A stretch of DNA of 53,017 nucleotides from a bacterium (GCA_017649705.1 JAGCGH010000032.1:1-53017); one strand, 5' to 3'. Positions 8,673 through 21,234 are shown, counted from the stretch's first letter. A program made the numbers and translations. The notes: generated by a model not told the origin, from the sequence alone.

Positions 8673-9409
8673 TGGCCCGGGAGCAGAATGAGGTTCAGGG
8701 AATAATCCCCGTCGACAAGCCGAAGGACTGGACTTCCCACGACGTCATAGCCAAATTAAGGGGCGCCTTCAGGATAAAAAAGATCGGACACTCCGGGACC
8801 CTGGACCCGATGGCGACGGGACTTCTGGCGGTCCTTTGCGGCAGGAGCACGAAGCTCTCCGACGCGCTGATGGCCTCCCAAAAGACATACGAGATGACGG
8901 TCCGTTTCGGCCTTGAGACCAACACCCAGGACATAACCGGCGAGGTCGTGAAGGAAAGCCCTCTTCCGGAAGACTTCGGGATCGAGGCGGTTTCGAAGAT
9001 CCTCCCGGAATTCAGAGGGGAGATAGAGCAGCTGCCGCCCATGTTCTCCGCCCTCAAGGTGAAGGGGAAAAAACTTTACGACATAGCGAGGAGAGGGCAG
9101 GAAGTCGAAAGGGAAAAGCGCCCGGTCACGATCTACGGGCTGGAGCTCCTGGCTCTTGAAGGAGACACGGCGAGATTCCGCTGCGTCTGCTCCAAGGGGA
9201 CTTACGTCAGGACTCTTGCCCACGACATCGGGCAAAAGCTTGGCTGCGGCGCGGCCCTCACCGAACTCAGAAGGACCAGCGGCAGTTTCCTCTCCATAGA
9301 GGAAGCCAAAAGCCTCGAGGAGGTTTTGAGCTGGGACTTGGAAAGACTGAGAGCGGAAGCGGAGAAGAATCTGGAAAAAGTAACCACGGCATTAAACGGC
9401 AATGCTTAG
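8672..9409 (+). CDS. truB: tRNA pseudouridine(55) synthase, short form apparently without PUA domain
   Basis: DKPKDWTSHD, GHSGTLDPMATG, PPMFSALKVKGKKLY, SKGTYVRTL. Confidence 0.96.
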   Translation: MAREQNEVQGIIPVDKPKDWTSHDVIAKLRGAFRIKKIGHSGTLDPMATGLLAVLCGRSTKLSDALMASQKTYEMTVRFGLETNTQDITGEVVKESPLPEDFGIEAVSKILPEFRGEIEQLPPMFSALKVKGKKLYDIARRGQEVEREKRPVTIYGLELLALEGDTARFRCVCSKGTYVRTLAHDIGQKLGCGAALTELRRTSGSFLSIEEAKSLEEVLSWDLERLRAEAEKNLEKVTTALNGNA

Positions 9410-10304
9410 AACGTCGGACATAAACTTACTCGCGAAAGCGGCGAAAGCGGGCTTCCTGGCCCTCGCAGCGCTTCTTTTGGCCTCCTGCGCCCCCAGGGCG
9501 GAGGAGAATGTCGACATCTACGTTTCCATACCGCCTCTGCTGCCCTTCGCCCAGAGACTGGCCGGCCCCGACGTAAAATGCGAAAGCTTCATGCCCTCCG
9601 GCGCCAACCCCCATTCCTATGAGCCTTCCCCCAGGAAAGGATCGGGCTACTACGCTTCGAAACTTTTCATCATGACAGGGCTGCCCTTCGAGCAGGAGCT
9701 CGTCAAAAGGACGGCCAAGGGCAAAGGCCCCGAAGTTTTGGATCTCTTCCACGCCGTTTACAAGGAAGAGGACCACGACGAAGATCACGATCACGACCAT
9801 GACCACGAAGAGCATCACGGACATCACCACGACCCGCACATCTGGCTCTCGCCAAAACTGATGCTGCAAATGGTCGGCCTTATGGCGGAGAAGATAGAGA
9901 CGCTCTATCCCGAAAAGAAGGCAGAGATAGAAAAAAGGAAGGAAGAGCTTGAAGCTGAGCTCGCCGCCTTCGATGAGGAACTGAAAGAAACTTTCGAAAA
10001 CGGTCCCAAGACTTTCCTGACCTTCCATCCCGCCTATTCCTGCTTCGCCTGCGATTACGGCCTCACTGAGATCGCCGTGGAGAAAGAAGGTTCCGAACCG
10101 ACGCCCAAAAGCCTGGCGGAATCTCTCAGAAAAGCCGGCGAAGAAAAACTGAATTATCTCATCATCCAGCCCGGCCTGAACGAAAGGCTCGCCAGCCACA
10201 TCGCCAGATCCGCCGATCTTAAGATCATAAAAAGGGACGCCCTTTCCACCAACTACTACGGCGAACTGAGAGCCCTTGCCAAAAACATAAAGGGGGAGGA
10301 ATAA
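9402..10304 (+). CDS. znuA: Zn/Mn ABC transporter substrate-binding lipoprotein
   Basis: Lipobox LLASC, NPHSYEP, His/Asp-rich loop, DPHIWLSP, FHPAY. Confidence 0.9.
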   Translation: MLRTSDINLLAKAAKAGFLALAALLLASCAPRAEENVDIYVSIPPLLPFAQRLAGPDVKCESFMPSGANPHSYEPSPRKGSGYYASKLFIMTGLPFEQELVKRTAKGKGPEVLDLFHAVYKEEDHDEDHDHDHDHEEHHGHHHDPHIWLSPKLMLQMVGLMAEKIETLYPEKKAEIEKRKEELEAELAAFDEELKETFENGPKTFLTFHPAYSCFACDYGLTEIAVEKEGSEPTPKSLAESLRKAGEEKLNYLIIQPGLNERLASHIARSADLKIIKRDALSTNYYGELRALAKNIKGEE

Positions 10305-11053
10305 TGGCCGACGTCATCATGAGATTCGAAGGCGTCACCTTCGGCTACGGACCGCACCTGGTCCTCGACGACGTCTCCTTCTCCATCAGAGCCGGAGAAT
10401 ACGTCGGCATCGTGGGCCCCAACGGCGGCGGCAAGACCACCCTTCTGAAACTGGTCCTCGGACTTCTGAAACCTCAGAAAGGGAAAATAACGCTTTTCGG
10501 CAAAGACCCGGAGGAGACCAGGTCCCGCATCGGCTACGTTCCCCAGTATTTCAACGTGGACAGGCAGTTCCCCATCAACGTGGCGGCGCTTATTGAAGCC
10601 GGTCTTCTGAACCGCCGTGGCTTCCTGCCCATGAGCAAAAAGGAAGCCAGGGAAAAGATCGCCGAGGCTTTGAAAAGCGTTTACCTGGACGGCTACCAGA
10701 CCAGGGCCGTAGGGGAGCTCTCCGGCGGAGAGCTGCAGCGCGTCCTCATAGCGAGAGCCCTTGTCTCCAGCCCGGAGATACTGCTTCTGGACGAGCCCAC
10801 CGCCAACGTTGACCCCGCGGTGGGAATCAGCCTTTACGGCCTTTTCCAGGAACTCAACAAGGACCACACCATCATCATCGTTTCCCACGACATCGGCTTC
10901 GTGACTTCCAGCGTCACTTCCATTCTCTGCCTCAACGAGAAACTCTACCAGCACGACGGCTCGAAGCTTACTCCGGAAGTCATAGAATCCCTTTACGGCG
11001 GACACGTCCATCTTGTGAACCACTGCCACCACTGCCACGGGGAGGAGGAATAA
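10304..11053 (+). CDS. znuC: metal ABC transporter ATPase
   Basis: GPNGGGKT, LSGGELQR, LLDEP, His/Cys tail HCHHCH. Confidence 0.92.
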   Translation: MADVIMRFEGVTFGYGPHLVLDDVSFSIRAGEYVGIVGPNGGGKTTLLKLVLGLLKPQKGKITLFGKDPEETRSRIGYVPQYFNVDRQFPINVAALIEAGLLNRRGFLPMSKKEAREKIAEALKSVYLDGYQTRAVGELSGGELQRVLIARALVSSPEILLLDEPTANVDPAVGISLYGLFQELNKDHTIIIVSHDIGFVTSSVTSILCLNEKLYQHDGSKLTPEVIESLYGGHVHLVNHCHHCHGEEE

Positions 11054-11853
11054 TGCAGATCGATCCCTTCCTTCTGAAAGCTCTCCTGGCGGGACTTTTG
11101 ATCTCTTTAGCCTGCGGCATCGTGGGCAGCCTCGTGGTGGTCAGAAGACTGACCTTCATCACCGGCGGCATCGCCCACGCCGTTTTGGGCGGCGTCGGCG
11201 TGGCGCTCTTCTTTAACATCGCCCCCGTCTGGGGCATCTTCATCAGTGGACAGCTGGCCGCCCTTGTTTTGGGCATCGTCAGCAGAAGAGTCAAGCGCTA
11301 CGAGGAGCCCATTATCGCGGCTCTCTGGTCCATCGGCATGGCCCTGGGCGTTCTTTTGGCCGCGCTCTCCCCGGGCTATCAGAGCGATCTGATGAGCTAC
11401 CTTTTCGGCAACATACTGCTGATCTCTCCCTACGACATCCTGAACGTCGTTATCCTGGACGCCGTCATCATCCTCATCACCGCCCTTTTCTACAAGCCCC
11501 TCCGCATCGTGTGCTTCGATGAGGAATACGCCACCCTTAGAGGACTTCCCACGGATTTCTTCTATCTGCTTCTGCTTTCCCTCATTGCCCTCACCGTCAT
11601 CTGCGTCATGCGCGTGGTGGGTCTCATCATGGTCATCGCCCTGATGGCGCTGCCGCCCACCATGATGCTCAGGCACACCAACCGCCTCCACATCGTCATG
11701 CTGGGCTCCTCTCTTATCAGCGCCGCCCTCATAGCCGCCGGTCTTCTCATATCTTTCCGCTTCGACTGGCCCTCCGGCGCGACCATCGTGCTTCTCACAG
11801 GACTGGTCTTCCTGCTTAAGATCATCATCTCCGAACTCCGCGCCAAAGCCTGA
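11053..11853 (+). CDS. znuB: metal ABC transporter permease (ABC-3)
   Basis: GIAHAVLGG, SYLFGNIL, FDEEYA, PSGATIV. Confidence 0.92.
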   Translation: MQIDPFLLKALLAGLLISLACGIVGSLVVVRRLTFITGGIAHAVLGGVGVALFFNIAPVWGIFISGQLAALVLGIVSRRVKRYEEPIIAALWSIGMALGVLLAALSPGYQSDLMSYLFGNILLISPYDILNVVILDAVIILITALFYKPLRIVCFDEEYATLRGLPTDFFYLLLLSLIALTVICVMRVVGLIMVIALMALPPTMMLRHTNRLHIVMLGSSLISAALIAAGLLISFRFDWPSGATIVLLTGLVFLLKIIISELRAKA

Positions 11854-11900
11854 AAAAACCAGGCTAAAATGGTATAATATAAGCCGAATAAAAGGCCTTT

Positions 11901-12452
11901 ATGACGCAAAGAGAAATAGACGCAGCCAGCCTTGAAAAGGCTAAAAAAATATTCGAAACAGGCGAAGTTTACGGTTTTGAGACCGGGACCGTCGCCGGGC
12001 TTTGCGCCATTCATTCCGCGCTTTTCAAAGGCCTTTACGACTTTGCCGGCCAGATAAGGAAACTCAACATTTCCAAAGGCAATTTGCGTTTTGCCAACGC
12101 TCTTTATCTTTCCCGGATCCTTCCGGTCATTGAAAAAATGCCCGAAGACACTTTCGATGATATCGTAAAAAAATATGTTGAAATGAACATCGCGCATCCC
12201 TTTATGGAAGGCAACGGCCGGGCCGCGCGCATCTGGCTCGACATGATCCTGAAAAAGCGGCTGGGAAAAGTCGTCAACTGGAGCCTCATTGAAAAAGACC
12301 AGTACCTTTCCGCCATGGAAAGAAGCCCCGTCAACGACCTTGAGATCAAAACACTTTTAAACAAAGCTTTGACCACCGAAACGGCCAGCCGGGAATTAAT
12401 TATGAAAGGCTTGGAACGTTCCTACTATTACGAAGGCTTGGAACCAAAATAA
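11901..12452 (+). CDS. fic: Fic-family adenylyltransferase, class III (C-terminally autoinhibited)
   Basis: [12 protein letters not shown] catalytic motif and C-terminal SYYYEG inhibitory motif; extended -10 TGGTATAAT at 11870-11878. Confidence 0.92.
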
Positions 12453-12469
12453 ACAGGGAGGGAGATCCT

Positions 12470-12679
12470 ATGCGTTTGATCATAGACAGAATCGAAGAAA
12501 ACGTCATCGTGGCGGAACTGCCGAACATGAAGACCGTAAACCTGCCTCTTGCCGTCGCCCCCAACGCGAAGGAAGGGGACTACCTTCAGATCTCGCTCAT
12601 AAGAAAAGAGAAGCGCAAAAGATCCAAGCTGGCTCAGGAGATCGCGGATCTGGAAGCCGAGCTCCGGGAAAAAGACTAA
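12470..12679 (+). CDS. DUF3006-like small protein
   Basis: IIDRIEENVIVAE..LP....PNAKEGDYL pattern; strong RBS GGGAGGGAG. Confidence 0.75.
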   Translation: MRLIIDRIEENVIVAELPNMKTVNLPLAVAPNAKEGDYLQISLIRKEKRKRSKLAQEIADLEAELREKD

Positions 12680-12699
12680 ACGCAAAGCCACCTTTCCTT

Positions 12700-12742
12700 A
12701 CACAAACTCCGCCATGACGATGTTGGCGAGTTCAACGCCGCG
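12700..12742. repeat. left direct repeat (att-like): displaced copy of the hemW 3' end
   Basis: ACACAAACTCCGCCATGACGATGTTGGCGAGTTCAACGCCGCG is identical to 19752-19794; minus strand reads RGVELANIVMAEFV then TAA (12698-12700). Confidence 0.97.
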
Positions 12743-12777
12743 AGCATCGGAGAAAAACATCAATTTGCCTTCACAAT

Positions 12778-12806
12778 TTGACAGCCTTTGCTATTTATGA
12801 GAAAAT
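12778..12806 (+). promoter_or_regulatory. putative sigma70 promoter of island operon
   Basis: TTGACA(12778-12783)-17 bp-GAAAAT preceded by TG; RBS GGAGG before ATG 12831. Confidence 0.55.
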
Positions 12807-12830
12807 ATGTTTAAAAATCGGAGGCACGAT

Positions 12831-14831
12831 ATGCGCAACATTCTCAAAATGTTATTTCTCATTTCTTTGATGACTTTCTGCATCTTTGCAAGTGAAGAAA
12901 TACCAGGGTCTATCAACGCCGACACCCTCCAGGGCCTCACCTCTTTTGCTTTCATGACCACCAACGACTTTGAAACTATCAAAGTCACAATAGAAAAACT
13001 CAAAAGCAGCGCCGAAGCCTGTGCCGACAGCATAGTGGACCTCCAGCTGGGGCTTTCATCCTTAAACCACGAGGAACGCCTCGTAAGGGAAAAAGACCTC
13101 AATAAGATCATTGAAGACTATTCCAAAATCAGTTCCGAACTAGTCATATCCAGCGTAGAAAACCAAGGCGACAGGACAGACGATATACAAGCTTTGCAAG
13201 CCGCTCTTGAAGCTCTTGAAGCGGAACTAACCTCTCTTCAGAATTACGTCCATAAATATCTTGGTCATCTTAAATCAGAAGAAGAAACATGGTATTTCAC
13301 CATAGACGGCGCTCTTCTTGGAACAAACGCGAGCATGGTCGCCACTCCTTCCTCAATAAGTAGCACAGTGCTTATAGGCCAGACTTTCCAGGTCAAAAAC
13401 AACTCAAACATCAGAAAGATCAAGATCAAGGCGGAATTATCCGCTCCTCCCTATAACTGCGTATTCCTTTCTCCTTACAGCCCAACCATTACTACAAACA
13501 CATTTGTTTACGCTAGTTCCGCAATAAATGAAGGCAATAACATTTATTCGTATAATTTCAACGATTATCCTGTTTCCACAAATTCCATTTATATATTCGG
13601 CGTAAGAGGAAGGAACTCCTACTCCCAGATCTGCCTGAACAAATGCAATGATGCTTACACCGGAGCGACCAACTGCCTCTGGCTCGGCACAGGCAGCAGG
13701 TACAGCTTAGACGCTCTCTCCGAGTTTGATCTGACCGCACAGCCTAATTGGGACCTTTGCTTCGACATAAGTTTTACGAGTATAACCAATCTCATCGTCA
13801 GCAAAGACGGTATCGAGATAAAGAACGACGCCAGTTTAAAAATAAATGATCAGGAAGCAGCAACTGTTCCTGAAGTAAACGCCAGGATAATGGAAGCCAG
13901 CCAAAGCATATATCAGTCCATAAGCAATCACGTCTTCGGAACGACATCCATAGCGAACGGCTCCATCACTTCCGATAAACTAGCCAACAACGCTGTAACA
14001 GCGGCCAAAATAGGAACCAACGCAGTTACGACCATTAAAATATCCAATGGCGCGATAACTGAAAGCAAAATAGATACCGGCGCGGTAACTGAAAACAAAA
14101 TAGCACTTGGAGCCGTCACAACAGCCAAGATAGACAACGAAGCTGTAACGACAAGCAAAATAGCGGATAGTTCCATAACCGAAAGCAAACTGTCCACCAA
14201 CTCTGTTTCCACTGCAATAATAAAAGACAATGCTATAACCGCCGCCAAAATAAACAATGGCGCAATAAACGGGAACAAGATACAATCTAACGCCATCGCT
14301 TCTTCCCACATATCAGCTCATGCGATAACGGCTGAAAAACTAGCTGCAAATTCAATCCAATTGTCCCATTTTACGGAATTCCTTAAGAGCAATTTGGTTT
14401 TATCTTCAGGCGGCTCAGTAACAGGCAAATTAGAAGTAACAGATTTCATATTTAGAAATTCTGGCGATTGGCATATTGGTACGGAAACAAATCGGACCGA
14501 TTTGATTATTGACAATCAAGAAGGAAATATTGCGACACTTGATGGCGATTTAAATTTAATTGCAAACGGAGAAAACAAAAGCATCAAAGCATTAAGTTTT
14601 CTTCAAATAAATTATCCGGGACAATGCGGAAAATTAGTGATCCCTGCTGGGGACACTTATGCAATTATTTGCGAGACTTTATCTCCAAATGCCGTTATAA
14701 ACATTACGCCAGCCCAAGATACTTTACTTAGATATTGGGTTGATATAGATATTTCAGGACAAGCCACAATCAATATTTCAGACACATGTAATACTAATCT
14801 GTATTTTTACTATTCCATACTGAAAAAATAA
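12831..14831 (+). CDS. secreted phage-tail-fibre-like repeat protein
   Basis: Signal peptide, NADTLQG motif, coiled-coil (IQALQAALEALEAELTSLQ), 14 tandem 10-aa repeats of the IxxxAVTxxK type, C-terminal beta domain; start chosen from RBS (ORF track start 12807). Confidence 0.75.
   Translation: MRNILKMLFLISLMTFCIFASEEIPGSINADTLQGLTSFAFMTTNDFETIKVTIEKLKSSAEACADSIVDLQLGLSSLNHEERLVREKDLNKIIEDYSKISSELVISSVENQGDRTDDIQALQAALEALEAELTSLQNYVHKYLGHLKSEEETWYFTIDGALLGTNASMVATPSSISSTVLIGQTFQVKNNSNIRKIKIKAELSAPPYNCVFLSPYSPTITTNTFVYASSAINEGNNIYSYNFNDYPVSTNSIYIFGVRGRNSYSQICLNKCNDAYTGATNCLWLGTGSRYSLDALSEFDLTAQPNWDLCFDISFTSITNLIVSKDGIEIKNDASLKINDQEAATVPEVNARIMEASQSIYQSISNHVFGTTSIANGSITSDKLANNAVTAAKIGTNAVTTIKISNGAITESKIDTGAVTENKIALGAVTTAKIDNEAVTTSKIADSSITESKLSTNSVSTAIIKDNAITAAKINNGAINGNKIQSNAIASSHISAHAITAEKLAANSIQLSHFTEFLKSNLVLSSGGSVTGKLEVTDFIFRNSGDWHIGTETNRTDLIIDNQEGNIATLDGDLNLIANGENKSIKALSFLQINYPGQCGKLVIPAGDTYAIICETLSPNAVINITPAQDTLLRYWVDIDISGQATINISDTCNTNLYFYYSILKK
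13950..14369 (+). repeat. 14 x 30-bp degenerate coding tandem repeat
   Basis: IANGSITSDK LANNAVTAAK IGTNAVTTIK ISNGAITESK IDTGAVTENK IALGAVTTAK IDNEAVTTSK IADSSITESK ... LAANSIQLSH. Confidence 0.9.
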
Positions 14832-14843
14832 AGAACAATCCTC

Positions 14844-16304
14844 ATGAGAAAAAATATTATAAATATTGTAATAGTATTGTTGTTTATATTTGCATCAGCT
14901 TATGTTGAGGCTGAGGTAATTTCACCTCTTCTTCGTTGTTTAAGGTTTGATTTAAATCATATGATAGATGACGTAACCATTCATAGTTCTGTAAATCTTG
15001 ATAATGACGATTGGATAACTATAAATAAAGATGAAAATATGTTTTATTTTATTGCAGACAATGATAATGAAAATCTTGAAAATAAATTTTTGGTTAGTTA
15101 CAGCGGGACTTGGCCAACACCGGAAGCTCATCAGGATCCACATACATTTCAATATGAGCCCCAAATGAACGGTTATATTTATTGCCAATGGGATGTAACT
15201 AACGGCACGCCGGTTGAAGCTGATCAAACAATTACCAACCGTATTTTACGCTCGTATGAAGGTATTCAAATGGATAACGATGTTGACATCTATACATTTT
15301 TACCAACCAATAGTGTTTATTGCATAGAAATGCCTGTAAATTCACGTGTGACAATGTCAATAGACTTAAACATGTCTGATTTTTCAAATATAAGTTTTGA
15401 ATGTACAACAAATGTTCATAACTGTTCGCAAGGTTTTACTAAAAGATGCTATAAAGATGATTGGATAATTGGCGAAAAATATTATATAAAACTCTACTGC
15501 TCAAACAGCAACGATTATTATGAGGCTGATCAAAATTATATTTTTACAATTAGAAATGTACAACCTGTTGTGTTGATTCACGGAATAAATTCGCATCCGA
15601 CATTTCCTGGAGATCCCGAAACAGCATTTTTAGAAATAAAAAGAGTTTTACCACATGCAGATGATCTTCGTCCAATAGTTTTTTTTGACTTTCCTTGGAA
15701 TCCCAAAAACACAAAATATGACCAATATATAGGTGAAAACAATTTGGATAAAAATATATTGTATGGTTATATTTATGATATTTTCATTAACTACAAATTA
15801 AAACCAATTGTTTTTTCTCATTCAATGGGAGGAATATTAATTGTTTGTCAAATAGAAGAAAGAGAAAGCATTGTAAGTCTAATTAGGAATTATGTGTTTT
15901 TTGGTACGCCTTTTTGCGGCTCCGATGCTGCTTCTTATCCGTTCGCTGGATTTTTTTCAAACACTTCTAGCGATAACATTGACCGTTTAAGAAGAGGGAC
16001 CAAGGATGTGTGGGTTTTTATGAGCAAAATACCTACAAGTTTTTTAAATTCCTATTCAACTTTTTTTATAGGAACAGATAATATTTTACGAGGAAAAGAT
16101 TATGGAATTAGTTGGCATAAAAATGGCGGAAAAGATTGTGATGGTGTTGTTTCTATATCATCAGCCAATTTATCCGGGACAATGCATAGGTCAAACGAAC
16201 GCATAAAAGTTAACTATAATCATACCGAAATGAAAGAACTAGTGTTTCCACTTTCGGGTGATTATTTAGATATATACAATAAATTAAAAAGTCATATTAA
16301 TTGA
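14844..16304 (+). CDS. secreted alpha/beta hydrolase (lipase/PGAP1-like) with N-terminal PPC-like domain
   Basis: Signal peptide; PVVLIHGI oxyanion motif, SHSMGG nucleophile elbow, GTPFCGS, DGVVS, terminal H (NHTEM); PPC-like DVDIYTF..GEKYYIKL..NYIFTI. Confidence 0.8.
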   Translation: MRKNIINIVIVLLFIFASAYVEAEVISPLLRCLRFDLNHMIDDVTIHSSVNLDNDDWITINKDENMFYFIADNDNENLENKFLVSYSGTWPTPEAHQDPHTFQYEPQMNGYIYCQWDVTNGTPVEADQTITNRILRSYEGIQMDNDVDIYTFLPTNSVYCIEMPVNSRVTMSIDLNMSDFSNISFECTTNVHNCSQGFTKRCYKDDWIIGEKYYIKLYCSNSNDYYEADQNYIFTIRNVQPVVLIHGINSHPTFPGDPETAFLEIKRVLPHADDLRPIVFFDFPWNPKNTKYDQYIGENNLDKNILYGYIYDIFINYKLKPIVFSHSMGGILIVCQIEERESIVSLIRNYVFFGTPFCGSDAASYPFAGFFSNTSSDNIDRLRRGTKDVWVFMSKIPTSFLNSYSTFFIGTDNILRGKDYGISWHKNGGKDCDGVVSISSANLSGTMHRSNERIKVNYNHTEMKELVFPLSGDYLDIYNKLKSHIN

Positions 16305-16309
16305 TAATT

Positions 16310-17455
16310 ATGATAAACAAATTGTTATTTTTTGTGATAATAACCTGTAATTTAATTTACGGTTTATATGAAATAGAATATAACGCCGCTATTGAAATCC
16401 AGGAGATCTTGGACAATAATATTGATGATTATAAATTGCAATATAATTTGGATGATAAAGATCCAATATCTTGGAATAATTTTTCTTATAATAATTCAGA
16501 AAAACAAGGAAATATTAAATATCTTGCCTCCGGTTTATTTATTGACTCTGTTTTAACAAGCAAAAGCGTTGCATTAAGATTGGTAAATAATTTTAACGTT
16601 AGCGATGTTCATTATATTAACATTGTTCCAGAACTTACTACATTTATTAAAATATCCTTAAAGAATGGCACTAATTTTTCATCTCAAGTATATTCAAGAC
16701 ATACTAATAATTTGCCATATAGTGAAATCTATTTTCATGTAAAACCTAAAAATAATTTTTGGGTAAATTTGATAAGATTAATATTTCCTTATATGTATGA
16801 TTTGCTGACACCTAATTCTATCATGAATTTTACTTGGGAACTTATTAATTGTGATATTGAAAATGCAAGTTTGTTTTTAATAATTTTAAATGACAACGAC
16901 ACCATTTTGTCAAAAACAAACGTGACTGGTTTGTCTGGGTATAGCATTAATATGTCTGAGGATGTTTTCCCGTGCGGAAAATATTGGTGGATGATAAGCG
17001 TAGAGGATAACATCGATTGCATTATTTGCTCGGAAAAAAGATGCTTTTATATTTCTAATAGTGTTGATTCTGATTCGGATGGTTACAACGATACAGTGGA
17101 AATTGCCAGAGATTCCAATCCTTATGATCGTGGGGATATTCCATTGATAATAATTTCCGATCCTGTTTGTTCAAATTCGTATTATGGTCAGCAGTATTAC
17201 AACATTTTGAAAGTTAATGACGAGCAAAATAGGGTTTATTGGAACGCTCCAGGTATTCTTCCTTCGGGTTTGATATTGTCTCAAGAAGGAGTTTTGTTTG
17301 GCATTCCAAGAGAAAACGGAGTTTTCCTTTTTGATGTCGAGGTTTTAAACGAAATTGGGAAAAGAGACATAAAGAGATTTTATATGAATATAAAAGATCC
17401 TAATCAGTCTCAAATAAAAAGCGGCGTGGGAGCTTACACTAACAAGGAGAATTAA
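16310..17455 (+). CDS. secreted Fn3/Ig-like domain protein with acidic Ca-binding-type repeat
   Basis: Hydrophobic N-terminus; FTW..PCGKYWWMISVED (Fn3-like); DSDSDGYND; LPSGLILSQEGVLFGIPRENGVF (He_PIG-like Ig). Confidence 0.65.
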   Translation: MINKLLFFVIITCNLIYGLYEIEYNAAIEIQEILDNNIDDYKLQYNLDDKDPISWNNFSYNNSEKQGNIKYLASGLFIDSVLTSKSVALRLVNNFNVSDVHYINIVPELTTFIKISLKNGTNFSSQVYSRHTNNLPYSEIYFHVKPKNNFWVNLIRLIFPYMYDLLTPNSIMNFTWELINCDIENASLFLIILNDNDTILSKTNVTGLSGYSINMSEDVFPCGKYWWMISVEDNIDCIICSEKRCFYISNSVDSDSDGYNDTVEIARDSNPYDRGDIPLIIISDPVCSNSYYGQQYYNILKVNDEQNRVYWNAPGILPSGLILSQEGVLFGIPRENGVFLFDVEVLNEIGKRDIKRFYMNIKDPNQSQIKSGVGAYTNKEN

Positions 17456-17459
17456 TAAT

Positions 17460-19658
17460 ATGAAATGTATTGTTTTATTATTTATTTGTTTTTTAGCGGT
17501 CTTGTCAGCTTACGGTGCAAAGATAACTAAAAATGACTTTCAAAACGATTACAAGCTGCCGGTGGTCATAGATGTTCCCAATTATGATGATGTGAAAAAA
17601 GGGTATGAGATCCAGGAACAGATATTGCAGCCGGGTGATTATTATCAAAGCGGAAAAGACGAAAACGGTTTCATTTTTAAACAATATGGCTTGATGCCAG
17701 GTTTAGCTACTAATAAAATGTTGCTTGAAAACGCAAAAATTCCGAACTATTTTCAGGCGCTGAATGATTCAAGGCAAAGCGAATACCAGATATTGAAAAA
17801 TGGCGTCAACGCAATAATTATTACTAATTGTGTTTCAATGGCACCGAAGCTTATGGAGGTTAAATATACCCCTAATTTTATAACATCAAATGCTTTTTTC
17901 ATTTCAAATCTTACTGAAACAAATGTTTTATATACTCTTGTCGCTTCAAATCGCGGCCCCCAAATTTTATTTTTAAACACGGATTTAGATCGCAAGGGAA
18001 ACATGTATTTTTTTATGCTGAAACCCAAACAAACAGCTAAATTTTACTTGATATTTAATTTCCTTGAACTGCCTAATTTTGTTGAGAAAAGCAGATTTGA
18101 TGTTGCTTTATATATTGGCTATTATTATCCTCATAATCATATGTTTGGAAATTTGAAAGTTGGAGAAATTATGCCTTTTATTAAGAACGAAAATTATAAA
18201 GCTCCGCAATCACCTATTATAATTTCTCCCTCAAACGGTAGTCGTTTTACAACTTTGAAAGATGTCAAATTTATTTTTAAAAGCAATATTAAAAACAAGT
18301 CAAGATATATTGCTGAACCTAATGGTAAAGGAGAAAGAATTGATTTGAATGGGACTCTTTATAAAATAAATTCAAATGACTCAATTAATTTAAATTTAGT
18401 TGCTCCTTACCTGAATGATATTAGCGCTGAATTGGCAGCTTTAAAAAAATACAACAAAATTAATAAAGATGATGAATTTTTCTTTATCAAAAATCGTAAT
18501 GTTAGTCCGGGTAATTACATATGGAGAATTACTAAACAGAGCTTTGATGACAAAACTGTTGTTTCCGACTGGGGCTGGCTTTCCGTTGGAGAAAAGATAT
18601 CTAAACCAAAAGAACGGCCGCCCAAAGGGCGTTCAATTGCCAAAAACATGCTACAATATTCAAAAAAATATAAATTTTTCTTTTGTATCGAAGAATATAC
18701 AAAAGGCATTGCCTTGGAGGGAAATAATATGAGCTTGGCCTCACTAAGCAACGCTTATTTTGCTTTCCCTTTGCCAAAAGGAATAAAATTGGAGCCTAAA
18801 AAGTATGGCGGCTATTTTACCGGTGTTCCTGAAGAAGTCGGCCGTTTTACCAATTATTGGATAGGTATTAATCGAAACAGTTTTTGTAATGTAGAGACGC
18901 AGAAATACATTTTTGTTGTGCACAACGATCAGAATAAGATAGTGTCTCGCTCGCTGTATCATTTGAATAAGGGTGCAATCGTTCATGATCTTACGGTAAA
19001 TGTTCCCTTTAATTTCAAAGCGAAAGAATATTACGATGAATTCTATAAAAAGGACGGGCTTGAATTTGATGCGAAGGCGGAAACAAAATTCCAGTCTTTA
19101 TTGCCTTTGGGATTAAGCGAGGAGAGAAAAGCAGACGGAGATTTTGCGATCATCGGCACGCCCAAAGAGGGCGGAATTTTCACTAATGTTTTAGTTATAA
19201 GTAGCAACGATTCATCTATTGAGCAAAAACATATATTTAGAATCCAGGATATCGGGGAGCCTCCGGCGCAGAAAAAGATAAGGAAACAAGACAGCATCGA
19301 GAACGACTGGTACGATCAGAGCAGAATAATTTATCATAACTGTTATATAGGAATTGAGACTTATTATTGTCTAGCCAACGATGTGTTCTGGTATAAGCCA
19401 AAAGAATTCACCAAAGAATTCCAATATGAGCTGCTAAATGAACTGCCAAAGGGCTTAAAGATAGCAATGCATGAACCTGATAAGAGATATGACTACTACA
19501 AGCTTCCTCCGCTAATTTCAATTTGCGGGGAACCCCAGGAAGAGGGAGTGTTTACCACCGTGATCAAATATATAGAAAACGGTAGGGAATTTGAGAGAAA
19601 ACACATTTTCAGGATCAGGAAAGAGCCCAGGAGTTACGAGGTTTATGATGTGGACTAG
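17460..19658 (+). CDS. secreted protein with Fn3-like and three He_PIG-like Ig repeats
   Basis: Signal peptide, RBS AAGGAG; APQSPIIISPSNG..PGNYIWRI; repeats LPKGIKL..FTGVPEEVGRFT, LPLGLSE..IIGTPKEGGIFT, LPKGLKI..ICGEPQEEGVFT. Confidence 0.7.
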   Translation: MKCIVLLFICFLAVLSAYGAKITKNDFQNDYKLPVVIDVPNYDDVKKGYEIQEQILQPGDYYQSGKDENGFIFKQYGLMPGLATNKMLLENAKIPNYFQALNDSRQSEYQILKNGVNAIIITNCVSMAPKLMEVKYTPNFITSNAFFISNLTETNVLYTLVASNRGPQILFLNTDLDRKGNMYFFMLKPKQTAKFYLIFNFLELPNFVEKSRFDVALYIGYYYPHNHMFGNLKVGEIMPFIKNENYKAPQSPIIISPSNGSRFTTLKDVKFIFKSNIKNKSRYIAEPNGKGERIDLNGTLYKINSNDSINLNLVAPYLNDISAELAALKKYNKINKDDEFFFIKNRNVSPGNYIWRITKQSFDDKTVVSDWGWLSVGEKISKPKERPPKGRSIAKNMLQYSKKYKFFFCIEEYTKGIALEGNNMSLASLSNAYFAFPLPKGIKLEPKKYGGYFTGVPEEVGRFTNYWIGINRNSFCNVETQKYIFVVHNDQNKIVSRSLYHLNKGAIVHDLTVNVPFNFKAKEYYDEFYKKDGLEFDAKAETKFQSLLPLGLSEERKADGDFAIIGTPKEGGIFTNVLVISSNDSSIEQKHIFRIQDIGEPPAQKKIRKQDSIENDWYDQSRIIYHNCYIGIETYYCLANDVFWYKPKEFTKEFQYELLNELPKGLKIAMHEPDKRYDYYKLPPLISICGEPQEEGVFTTVIKYIENGREFERKHIFRIRKEPRSYEVYDVD

Positions 19659-19749
19659 ACTATAAAATTTTATTGGGGCTATTATATTTTCAAAAGGCAA
19701 TATTTGCATTGTGTTAAACAATCTTTATATTTACTTGATAAAACTTTAA

Positions 19750-21234
19750 TCACACAAACTCCGCCATGACGATGTTGGCGAGTTCAACGCCGCGGCGGGT
19801 GAGTTTCAGGGTGCTGCCTTTGCAGGTCACGAGTTTGCGGTCGGAGAGGTCTTCTATTTGTTTTTGGAATAATTCTTCATCTTGGGGCGTCAATTTGACG
19901 CCCTCGCTTTTTCTGAGGCCGAGGTAGATGCGTTCCCCGAGTTTTTGGATCTTGTTGAGGGGTTTGGCGGTGATCAATTTCCAGGCTTGGTCCATGCGGG
20001 CGCGCCTTGCAATGTTTCGATAGGGGAAGCGGCAGTAGCTGTGGGCGCCGGGGCCTAAGCCGAGGTAGTGTTTCTCGGTGTCCCAGTAAGTGGAGTTGTG
20101 GCGTGAATAGTAATTGGGTTTTGCGGCGTTGGAGATCTCGTACATCTCGTAGCCCTGTTCTTTTATGAGTTTTCTGGCCAGCCAGTATTCTTTCATGGTC
20201 ACGGCGTCGCTAGGGAGCGTCGGATTCTCCTTTTGGAGAGGCGTGCCTTTTTCCACTGAGAGGGCGTAGAAGGAAATGTGCTCGGGATGCCAGGAGAGGA
20301 GTTCTATTACGCTTTTTTGCCAGGAGGAGATGGTTTGATGCGGCAGGCCGTACATGAGATCTAAGGAAATGTTTTCGAAGCCGTTTTTCCTGAGCGTTTG
20401 GTAGGCTTCTTTCGCTTGCTGGGCGGTGTGCAGGCGGCCCAGGTAATGGAGCTCGTTATCCTGGAGGGACTGGACGCCCAGGCTTATTCTGTTTACGCCG
20501 GCTTGTTGCCAGAATTTTAGGTCCTCAGGGCGAAATGCGGCGGGGTTCGCCTCCAGGGTGCATTCGATATTATCGGGCCAGCGAACGGCCGCTTTTACGG
20601 CCTCAGAGATTCTCAGAAGGGCATCGCCGGGGAGAAGAGAGGGCGTTCCTCCGCCGAAATAAACGCTGGATAATTCCCGGTAGGGCATGAGGGGAAGAAG
20701 CGTTCTGATTTGATGGATGAGCGCTTCGGCGTATTCCTGAATTTCGTTGTTTTGCGGAGGATGACTATAGAAGGCGCAGTAGCGGCATTTTCTTAAGCAG
20801 AAGGGGACGTGGATGTAGAGCGCCAGTTTTTGGGGAGGGGCGGTCCTGGGAAGGGAGATCTGTTCCGCCAGGGCTTTGGCAAGGGGAATGTCGTTGGGAA
20901 GAAGAGCGTATTTTGCGAGGTCTTCTCTTTTTACCCAGGCTAATTTGGCGTGCTCCAGGGGAACGGGCTCGGAGCCTTGGAGTTTGGCGCTGACGCCCAC
21001 CAATCTTATGTTGGTGGTCTTGTCATAGACGATGCCGGTGGGGATGATGTCGGCGGCGAGCTCTTCTTTGATCTCGCGTTGGGCGCATTGGGCGAAGGTC
21101 TCGCCGGGCTTTCTTTTACCGCCGGGAAATTCCCAGCCGCCGGGCTTTCCCGGTTTATCGAGGCGCAGCGCCAGAAGTATCCTGCCTTTATCTTCGATGA
21201 CCGCCGCGGATACTTCAATTGGGTCGTTATTCAA
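19750..21234 (-). CDS. hemW: fusion of MutT-like NUDIX hydrolase and radical SAM heme chaperone HemW
   Basis: N-terminal Nudix box GGKRKPGETFAQCAQREIKEELA; then LYIHVPFCLRKCRYC, YFGGGTPS, EANP, RISLGVQS, DLMYGLP, YEISN, HNSTYW. Confidence 0.9.
   Translation of the reverse strand: MNNDPIEVSAAVIEDKGRILLALRLDKPGKPGGWEFPGGKRKPGETFAQCAQREIKEELAADIIPTGIVYDKTTNIRLVGVSAKLQGSEPVPLEHAKLAWVKREDLAKYALLPNDIPLAKALAEQISLPRTAPPQKLALYIHVPFCLRKCRYCAFYSHPPQNNEIQEYAEALIHQIRTLLPLMPYRELSSVYFGGGTPSLLPGDALLRISEAVKAAVRWPDNIECTLEANPAAFRPEDLKFWQQAGVNRISLGVQSLQDNELHYLGRLHTAQQAKEAYQTLRKNGFENISLDLMYGLPHQTISSWQKSVIELLSWHPEHISFYALSVEKGTPLQKENPTLPSDAVTMKEYWLARKLIKEQGYEMYEISNAAKPNYYSRHNSTYWDTEKHYLGLGPGAHSYCRFPYRNIARRARMDQAWKLITAKPLNKIQKLGERIYLGLRKSEGVKLTPQDEELFQKQIEDLSDRKLVTCKGSTLKLTRRGVELANIVMAEFV
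19752..19794. repeat. right direct repeat (att-like), functional hemW 3' end
   Basis: Identical to 12700-12742; completes the gene with TGA (19750-19752). Confidence 0.97.

Follow-up and report, generated by a model that had tools for sequence, protein, structure and literature searches.

Positions 12698 to 19794 of a 53,017-nucleotide bacterial contig (GCA_017649705.1, JAGCGH010000032.1:1-53017; this whole stretch is referred to here as the window) hold an AT-rich island set into the 3′ end of hemW, a gene which encodes a NUDIX-HemW fusion protein. The island is a strain-variable insertion into an intact junction between a DUF3006 gene and hemW, and the native last 14 codons of hemW now stand, with their TAA stop codon, 7 kb away from the gene. 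A second island in the same genome (G000; 2.12 Mb in 178 contigs, 89% complete) has the same architecture at a different gene.

The hemW island is bounded by a perfect 43-bp direct repeat (12700-12742 and 19752-19794) encoding the last 14 codons of the NUDIX-HemW gene. When the alignment of the two copies was extended to 12692 and 19744, 48 of 51 positions matched. The live gene (19750-21234, minus strand) encodes 494 aa and ends in TGA (TCA at 19750-19752), with its repeat copy at the attR-like end of the island. Its open reading frame (ORF) contains NUDIX, Radical_SAM, and HemN_C domains, and its score with the HemW equivalog TIGR00539 is 277 bits (cut-off 205). The orphan hemW 3′ end (12698-12742, minus strand) consists of the attL-like repeat copy and TAA (TTA at 12698-12700). 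A first-pass annotation of the window had described the identical repeat and the two different stop codons, which can be read directly from the sequence, and had proposed that the element brought its own stop. The latter is borne out by the live TGA, which abuts island DNA and was thus supplied by the insertion. A pattern search of the whole genome allowing up to three mismatches returned only these two copies of the 43-mer (reversed control, 0), and among the matches listed by a lenient blastn-short search there was no exact match longer than 17 nt besides the repeats. The NUDIX-HemW fusion was seen in all same-genus genomes having a match. In several genomes from other families of the order (e.g. 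G016 and G010) the NUDIX and hemW parts are adjacent and occupy separate open frames, and in G014 they lie within one.

Relatives carry the same junction without the island. Of the genus's eight other species, seven have NUDIX-hemW (completeness of the remaining genome, 68%), and at all seven loci the left flank runs directly into hemW, the opposite of the shared cargo in all relatives that the first-pass annotation had named as evidence against an insertion. G008, the closest species, has flanks that are 91-98% identical; here an 18-bp spacer comes after the DUF3006 stop codon, then TTA, one repeat copy, and hemW. The same spacer and TTA form the outer flank of the orphan in the window, where the DUF3006 gene (12470-12679, plus strand; Pfam DUF3006, E 9e-11) stops 18 bp from the orphan hemW stop codon and is the empty site's native left neighbour. 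This gene also adjoins hemW in G007, whose hemW stop codon is TGA, and on a contig from run X8, an independent gut sequencing run of another study. On the X8 contig (897 nt), 12699 is followed directly by 19752, with 7,052 bases missing and 43 letters that fit both sides, and hemW there ends in TAA before the 18-bp spacer. An empty site with TAA and this spacer had been anticipated from the window alone; it was found in both G008 and X8, each with a single 43-mer. In four further species (G003-G006), the znuB and hemW stop codons overlap and neither a Fic-domain gene nor a DUF3006 gene is present, an arrangement which indicates that the whole znuB-hemW stretch is variable.

The occupied site was also recovered from other samples. 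Sequencing runs were examined as Logan contigs, and the contigs of four runs break inside the 43-mer; broken contigs of this kind cannot by themselves separate an integrated island from an empty site plus a circle. Runs X2 and X7, from two further studies, contained the island as a contig of 7,068/7,069 nt (12713/4-19781) with 4 and 13 differing letters, at a depth equal to that of the flank. In X7, which is without the window's left flank, the 43-mer formed its own node with a depth of 41.4, against 18.7 for island and flank. Integration is supported by these equal depths, together with the window's own contig and a chromosomal copy of the cargo in G008.

Run X12 differed. Here, positions 17393-19786 lie beside hemW at 99.4-100% identity, with flanks at ~96%. 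The opposite junction joins 12740 to 17393 with no shared letters, and is flagged as weak (one contig, 30 letters on one side, 90% likeness). From these sequences, X12 would carry a shorter island at the same hemW site. Among the differences listed, its hemW flank has none relative to G000 from the island to ~20140 (~390 bp) and differs beyond that point. Within hemW, a dense patch of 17 differences between G000 and G008 occupies 64 bp (20102-20165), and runs X7, X8, and X12 have alternative letters in common at much of 20140-20203, compared with G000 and X2. The patch and the shared letters suggest mosaic recombination inside the gene.

The island proper spans 7,009 bp (12743-19751) and has a GC content of 0.353, compared with 0.557 for the genome. 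It contains four plus-strand genes for apparently secreted proteins (384-732 aa), none of which matched Pfam or NCBIfam. In agreement with the first description of 7 kb of AT-rich, recombinase-less DNA, no integrase, transposase, or relaxase domain was detected using Pfam, NCBIfam, and PHROG, and Rfam and tRNA scans gave no Rfam family or tRNA. A 21-bp linker (12743-12763) at the left junction is peculiar to this insertion; in run X8 the letters preceding 12763 are different. The cargo module (12764-19658, plus strand) starts with the ORF1 promoter and finishes with the ORF4 stop codon, is common to a locus elsewhere in G008 (L033), and includes a promoter-like TTGACA-17-GAAAAT at 12778-12806. 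An AT-rich right-end linker (19659-19749, 91 bp) abuts the live stop codon of hemW. Comparison of the 98-nt right end with the nine genus genomes gave no persuasive match (best E 0.03, 27 nt).

All four proteins begin with a hydrophobic N-terminus which, by eye from the translations, appears signal-peptide-like. ORF1 (12807-14831, 674 aa) carries a run of 10-residue (30-nt) tail-fibre-type repeats (family D1), and these account for every PHROG match in the island. The match to PHROG 892 (tail fibre, E 4e-28) covers the repeats only, as does a single weak match among solved structures ('orf16' of 9eg4, E 0.007). ORF2 (14844-16304, 486 aa) had no PDB match by sequence search. Its Atlas feature scores to esterase/lipase clusters (0.83-0.87) are under the 0.9 level, and a PGAP1/DUF676-type esterase/lipase is a possible lead only. 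ORF3 (16301-17455, 384 aa) is followed by ORF4 (17460-19658, 732 aa), for which Atlas scores of 0.80-0.84, also under the 0.9 level, offer He_PIG-type immunoglobulin-like (Ig) domains as a comparable lead. Judging from these features, the likeliest effect of the cargo is an altered cell surface or secretome.

Two familiar classes of element were considered and rejected. The structural, replication, and packaging genes of a prophage or phage satellite are lacking, the only PHROG matches being at the level of the ORF1 repeats, and the whole island DNA searched in distant mode had no match in 50,697 phage records or the plasmid collection. A transposon or insertion sequence (IS) would be expected to differ in several respects: no transposase domain or terminal inverted repeats were found (island left end against reverse-complemented right end, score 22; shuffle 95th percentile, 23), and the duplications are 43 bp here and 123 bp at the second island.

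The cargo is mobile within the genus. A scan for ORF4 using one genome per species identified one relative in 97 pattern matches, at L033 (95% protein identity), which by coordinates is the same stretch as contig C194 of G008. Against window positions 12764-19657, the L033 cargo aligned by blastn at 83.7% over 1,309 nt (ORF1) and 94.3% over 5,610 nt (the rest). The G008 copy lies between a 228-aa gene and tRNA-Thr(GGT), within a 44.7-kb contig; at the same place, G000 has only 142 bp (C148 615-758) and is empty. As each species holds the cargo where the other is empty, and as X12 appears to have a short version, the block evidently moves. ORF1 (12764-14069) is much more diverged between the sister species than ORF2-4 (14051-19657), which on sequence grounds would fit a variable, exposed protein.

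Low GC content does not make the cargo foreign to the genus: its genes belong to a genus-specific paralogous family. All 8 same-genus genomes examined had relatives of ORF4 and none of 9 genomes from the order's other genera did, and a set of 5.8 billion proteins contained 17 homologues. G000 has paralogous clusters on contigs C117, C137, and C76, with paralogues of ORF1-3 on C117 and C137. Further AT-rich islands of 4-8 kb (28-33% GC) occur on C57, C82, C117, C159, and C165. No flanking repeat of the hemW-island kind was found for these or for the AT-rich islands on C116 and C35. A 121-nt, 80%-identical repeat on C116 was discarded as an insertion scar, being a C-terminal domain common to two paralogous genes, and the repeat matches on C57 proved to be flanking paralogues.

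The second island emerged from a list of exact direct repeats in G000 (at least 24 bp, 300-40,000 bp apart), in which only two pairs, at hemW and on contig C84, enclose DNA of less than 40% GC. The C84 island (8742-13334; locus L058 4743-9335) has a perfect 123-bp repeat starting at 8742 and 13212 and an inner GC content of 0.311. Its repeat is the 3′ end, from TAA, of a 924-aa gene. Within the 4.3-kb island are two maturase-like genes of the radical-SAM/SPASM type together with a 278-aa ORF; no recombinase was found in it. The site is empty in six relatives (G002-G007); G001 and G008 gave no orthologous match.

The C84 orphan is chimeric. After the 123 identical bases, it continues in register for 54 bases that match G006 at 47 of 54 positions and the G000 live gene at 35 of 54. 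The 123-bp block itself is identical to G006 at 99 of 123 positions. The C84 island therefore formerly lay beside, or carried, the end of the same gene from a different species. By eye, no such diverged extension follows the 43 bp at hemW, and homology to the sister-species cargo starts at 12764. The ends of the two islands have no motif in common and no terminal inverted repeats (0 of 8 comparisons over the shuffle 95th percentile).

What the two islands do share is the placement of their identity blocks. One edge of each repeat lies at the stop codon (the hemW repeat begins with its last base, the C84 repeat with TTA), and the other at the centre of a palindrome. In hemW this is a perfect 10-bp palindrome at 19788-19797 (CGCCGCGGCG; CGCCG|CGGCG, 5-bp arms); the repeat extends 2 nt beyond its centre (19792/19793). 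The junction in X12 coincides with this centre, as 12740 corresponds to 19792. The C84 palindrome (CTTCCGC-T-GCGGAAG, C84 13327-13341) has 7-bp arms, and the repeat ends on its central T. Palindromes with 0-1 nt between arms occur in the genome at densities of 0.0025 per position for arms of at least 5 bp and 0.00024 for arms of at least 7 bp. The joint chance of both placements is ~1e-5, a post hoc estimate based on two cases only.

A third orphan gene end travels with the cargo in G008. Thirty-three bp after the ORF4 stop codon, L033 contains a 151-nt orphan (12233-12383; Y′) of the 3′ end of a 339-aa gene, gene Y. Y′ is 92% identical to the gene Y allele of G002 and 86.6% identical to G008's own gene Y, which is on another contig. 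It is followed by a 106-nt, 83%-identical truncated copy of the ORF1 promoter and first codons, which puts a 106-nt repeat of the cargo's 5′ region at either end of the L033 cargo. Gene Y itself is followed by a 3.9-kb AT-rich island in G007 (L081 9395-13586, C13) and G008 (L080 962-5153, C154). This island has three genes (284, 164, and 672 aa), and the 672-aa product is an ORF4 paralogue. In G002 (L082 7476-7625, C30) the site is empty, with 151 bp to the next gene.

Our tentative preference, to which we give a little less than an even chance, is that the hemW island is non-autonomous and CIME-like (CIME, cis-mobilizable element), having entered by a crossover within an imitation of the gene's 3′ end, with the enzyme acting in trans. 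A circular form of the island would carry the hemW 3′-end mimic and undergo a single conservative, Campbell-type crossover with the chromosome at or beside the dyad-symmetric CGCCG|CGGCG, 43 bp before the stop codon. Crossover at the palindrome would leave an identity block which spans the crossover region to the gene end, as in integrase-borne islands of tRNA genes. The recombinase would have been supplied in trans or since lost, and the four cargo genes would be read from one promoter. This is close to the decayed or trans-mobilised site-specific element first proposed for the window. The structural predictions of that proposal held; a site-specific recombinase as the agent of insertion is still a conjecture, and no cognate integrase-bearing element was found in the collections searched.

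Several observations weigh against this preference, among them the scarcity of recombinases. No integrase-bearing relative of the island and no hemW-using element was found in the nine genus genomes or among phages, plasmids, and viral or metagenome contigs, although this does not prove that such an element is absent, since metagenome-assembled genomes often lose mobile elements. Metagenome contigs gave 0 matches to a 32-mer of the repeat and 0 relatives of the ORF4 family in 594 pattern matches; viral contigs gave 0 matches to a 22-mer and 0 relatives in 422. The first-pass annotation had proposed looking for the 43-mer at other islands with different cargo or an adjacent recombinase, and none turned up in the genome or the collections searched. 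Each of the nine genus genomes has only two conserved PF00589 genes, which are XerC/D-like and correspond one-to-one (in G000, on contigs C159 and C125); the exceptions to two matches per genome are a fragment in G003 and a third match in G000. The latter is a 175-aa ORF (65.7 bits) on the 3,724-bp contig C79.

The geometry of the sites is also unfavourable. Tyrosine recombinases usually have an overlap of 6-8 bp, a spacing unlike that of the hemW and C84 palindromes, which have 0-1 nt between arms. As the ends of the two islands have no common motif, a recombinase common to both would have to work without visible arm sites. The C84 orphan is chimeric, and identical distal parts are not what a simple conservative crossover would lead one to expect. 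Identity of 43/43 and 123/123 at synonymous sites exceeds what selection for a mimic would keep. Finally, the Y′ orphan does not start at its palindrome (6-bp arms, ~120 bp before the stop codon), its boundary lying 25-45 bp further in.

Among other recombinase families, G000 had no resolvase and no DDE_Tnp_1 or IS110 match, one clear rve match (on contig C107), and two Y1_Tnp (PF01797) matches, at C22:1037-1219 (378-aa frame) and C15:1124-1399 (309-aa frame). Enzymes of the Y1 (HUH) transposase family act at hairpins, and these matches may bear on the palindrome rule. Contig C79 also encodes a 357-aa ORF. This contig and C78 (2,627 bp) each have identical 141-bp ends, so that they may be small circles or tandem repeats; they may or may not derive from this organism.

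The main rival, possible though in our view on the unlikely side, is homology-driven insertion with no site-specific enzyme. Related DNA carrying the island and the target 3′ end would be integrated by host general recombination, either through a single crossover of a circle or through 'ends-in' integration with gap repair; the repeats would then permit RecA-mediated excision and re-integration. Gap repair copies recipient sequence and would make the two repeat copies identical, in keeping with their perfect identity. This rival accounts better than our preferred crossover for the chimeric C84 orphan, where 123 bp of recipient type precede 54 bp of another species' allele in register, for the travelling Y′ orphan, which is nearer to G002 than to its host and accompanied by the 106-nt repeat around the L033 cargo, and for the lack of dedicated integrases in the genus. 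The X12 hemW flank likewise resembles a recombination tract, among the differences listed. However, homology alone leaves unexplained why both identity blocks end at a palindrome centre and why both start exactly at a stop codon. It also does not account for the first formation of a circle with a gene end, and 43 bp is near the lower length limit for RecA-dependent recombination.

A generalisation across the genus, which we regard as doubtful, is that AT-rich cassettes move by a recombinase-poor route, entering where a short perfect palindrome precedes a stop codon by 40-125 bp. The coding end would be duplicated up to the stop codon and the gene would survive, with cassettes hopping between gene ends and species together with old orphans. 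The three targets would be hemW, the 924-aa gene on C84, and gene Y. The enzyme would be a host function, such as the XerC/D-like pair, a hairpin-cutting Y1/HUH protein, or break repair, and not an element-borne integrase.

De novo duplication by break repair, akin to homology-facilitated illegitimate recombination, is an improbable explanation. The recipient hemW would suffer a double-strand break at its palindrome centre, repaired in two steps, with one end copying a donor (hemW end, TGA, and island) before an illegitimate joint to the other end. This places the junction at the palindrome centre in both islands. It also fits X12, where the right junction is the same and the left differs (12740-17393), as expected of a fixed break and a variable donor end, and where, among the differences listed, ~390 bp of hemW beside the island show none from G000. 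On the other hand, the X12 joint is the weakly flagged contig described above. The donor must already have had the island directly after the hemW stop codon, and none was found. The in-register foreign allele in the C84 orphan is left unexplained unless the donor already had an orphan, and at 10-15 bp the palindromes are on the short side for breakage induced by hairpins.

Very little probability attaches to an ancestral island at hemW, with the empty sites of relatives produced by deletion between the 43-bp repeats. Such a deletion would leave exactly one copy, as observed, and the identity of ~94% between G000 and G008 in ORF2-4 is similar to that of the flanks (91-98%). However, independent losses would be required in seven species, including outgroups whose overlapping znuB and hemW stop codons leave no room for an island. 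The sister species has the cargo elsewhere, and the duplication would still need an insertion event. Least credible of all is an assembly artefact in which an empty site and a free circular element sharing the 43-mer were misjoined: with words of 31 bases the two graphs are the same and Logan contigs cannot separate them, but island and flank depths are equal in two independent runs, the X7 43-mer node has double depth, the window's contig crosses both junctions, the 141-bp terminal overlaps of C78 and C79 suggest assembly words of 141 bases (longer than the repeat), and the sister-species cargo is chromosomal, within its 44.7-kb contig.

Outside the island, the variable znuB-hemW stretch of the window also contains the Fic-domain gene (11901-12452, plus strand; Pfam Fic, E 6e-11). 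It is present in G007 and G002 and absent in G008 and G003-G006. In G008 and run X8, window positions 11892-12445 are missing and the junction retains the last Fic codons. This junction has ~5-6 bases (AAGGC) in common with a site upstream of the Fic start codon, and the loss looks like a microhomology deletion.

Integrase-less islands are usually dismissed as decayed, and here the same build occurs twice in one genome. If a host enzyme or palindrome break repair is responsible, this would be a little-described route for the spread of surface-protein and peptide-maturase clusters in uncultured gut bacteria, and hemW would be a further protein-gene target. Should there be a helper element instead, the att sites established here allow a search for it.

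Among known systems, the closest in structure is the CIME, described in PMC5704250 as a decayed integrative and conjugative element (ICE) or integrative and mobilizable element (IME) that keeps attL and attR and whose genes for integration and transfer have been lost. On that description, the hemW island is CIME-like in being flanked by direct repeats which include the target 3′ end, in lacking integrase and transfer genes, and in that any movement would need a helper; the different forms found at this one site point to deletion or accretion beside the att site. It is unlike a CIME in that no parent ICE/IME or cognate integrase is known for the genus, leaving it without the derivation from an ICE or IME by which that text defines the class. 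Its cargo is also a genus-specific paralogous family and not ICE remnants, and its target is hemW.

The rule for tRNA-gene sublocations reportedly originated with Williams in 2002. As outlined in bioRxiv 10.1101/2020.11.02.365908, tRNA-gene islands use symmetric sublocations, with an attB that reaches from the sublocation as far as the 3′ end, and their repeats measure 15-221 bp, a range that includes the 43- and 123-bp repeats described here. The hemW and C84 islands resemble these tRNA- and tmRNA-gene islands in having an identity block from a dyad-symmetric site to the gene 3′ end, a restored gene end, and low GC content. They differ in having no integrase gene beside an att site; 135 of the 162 islands in that preprint have an integrase. 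They differ also in their protein-coding target and in a perfect palindrome with a 0-1 nt spacer, in place of a stem-loop with a 7-nt loop.

Elements of the ICESt1/ICESt3 type insert at the 3′ end of fda with their own tyrosine integrase and have repeats of about 27 bp. The hemW island shares with these and other 3′-end ICEs and IMEs a housekeeping protein gene as target and a short duplicated coding end, and is unlike ICESt1/ICESt3 in its longer repeat and the lack of its own integrase. The latter is a point of likeness to integrative elements exploiting host XerC/XerD at dif (IMEX), as the host's two conserved tyrosine recombinases would be the sole ones available; the target, however, is hemW and not an intergenic dif, and inspection of the junctions by eye only, with no formal test, recognised no dif-like site. 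Homology-facilitated illegitimate recombination, as in transformable bacteria, resembles the present case in that one homologous anchor and one illegitimate joint fit X12 with no recombinase. That process usually deletes recipient DNA and does not duplicate it, and we know of no palindrome rule for it. Integrase-less islands with att-like repeats are already known. Searches of the literature, judged by title, gave nothing on hemW or hemN as an attachment site. New in the present case are the hemW target, the repetition of this build at another gene within a single genome, the palindrome-to-stop rule, and their occurrence in a genus without dedicated integrases.

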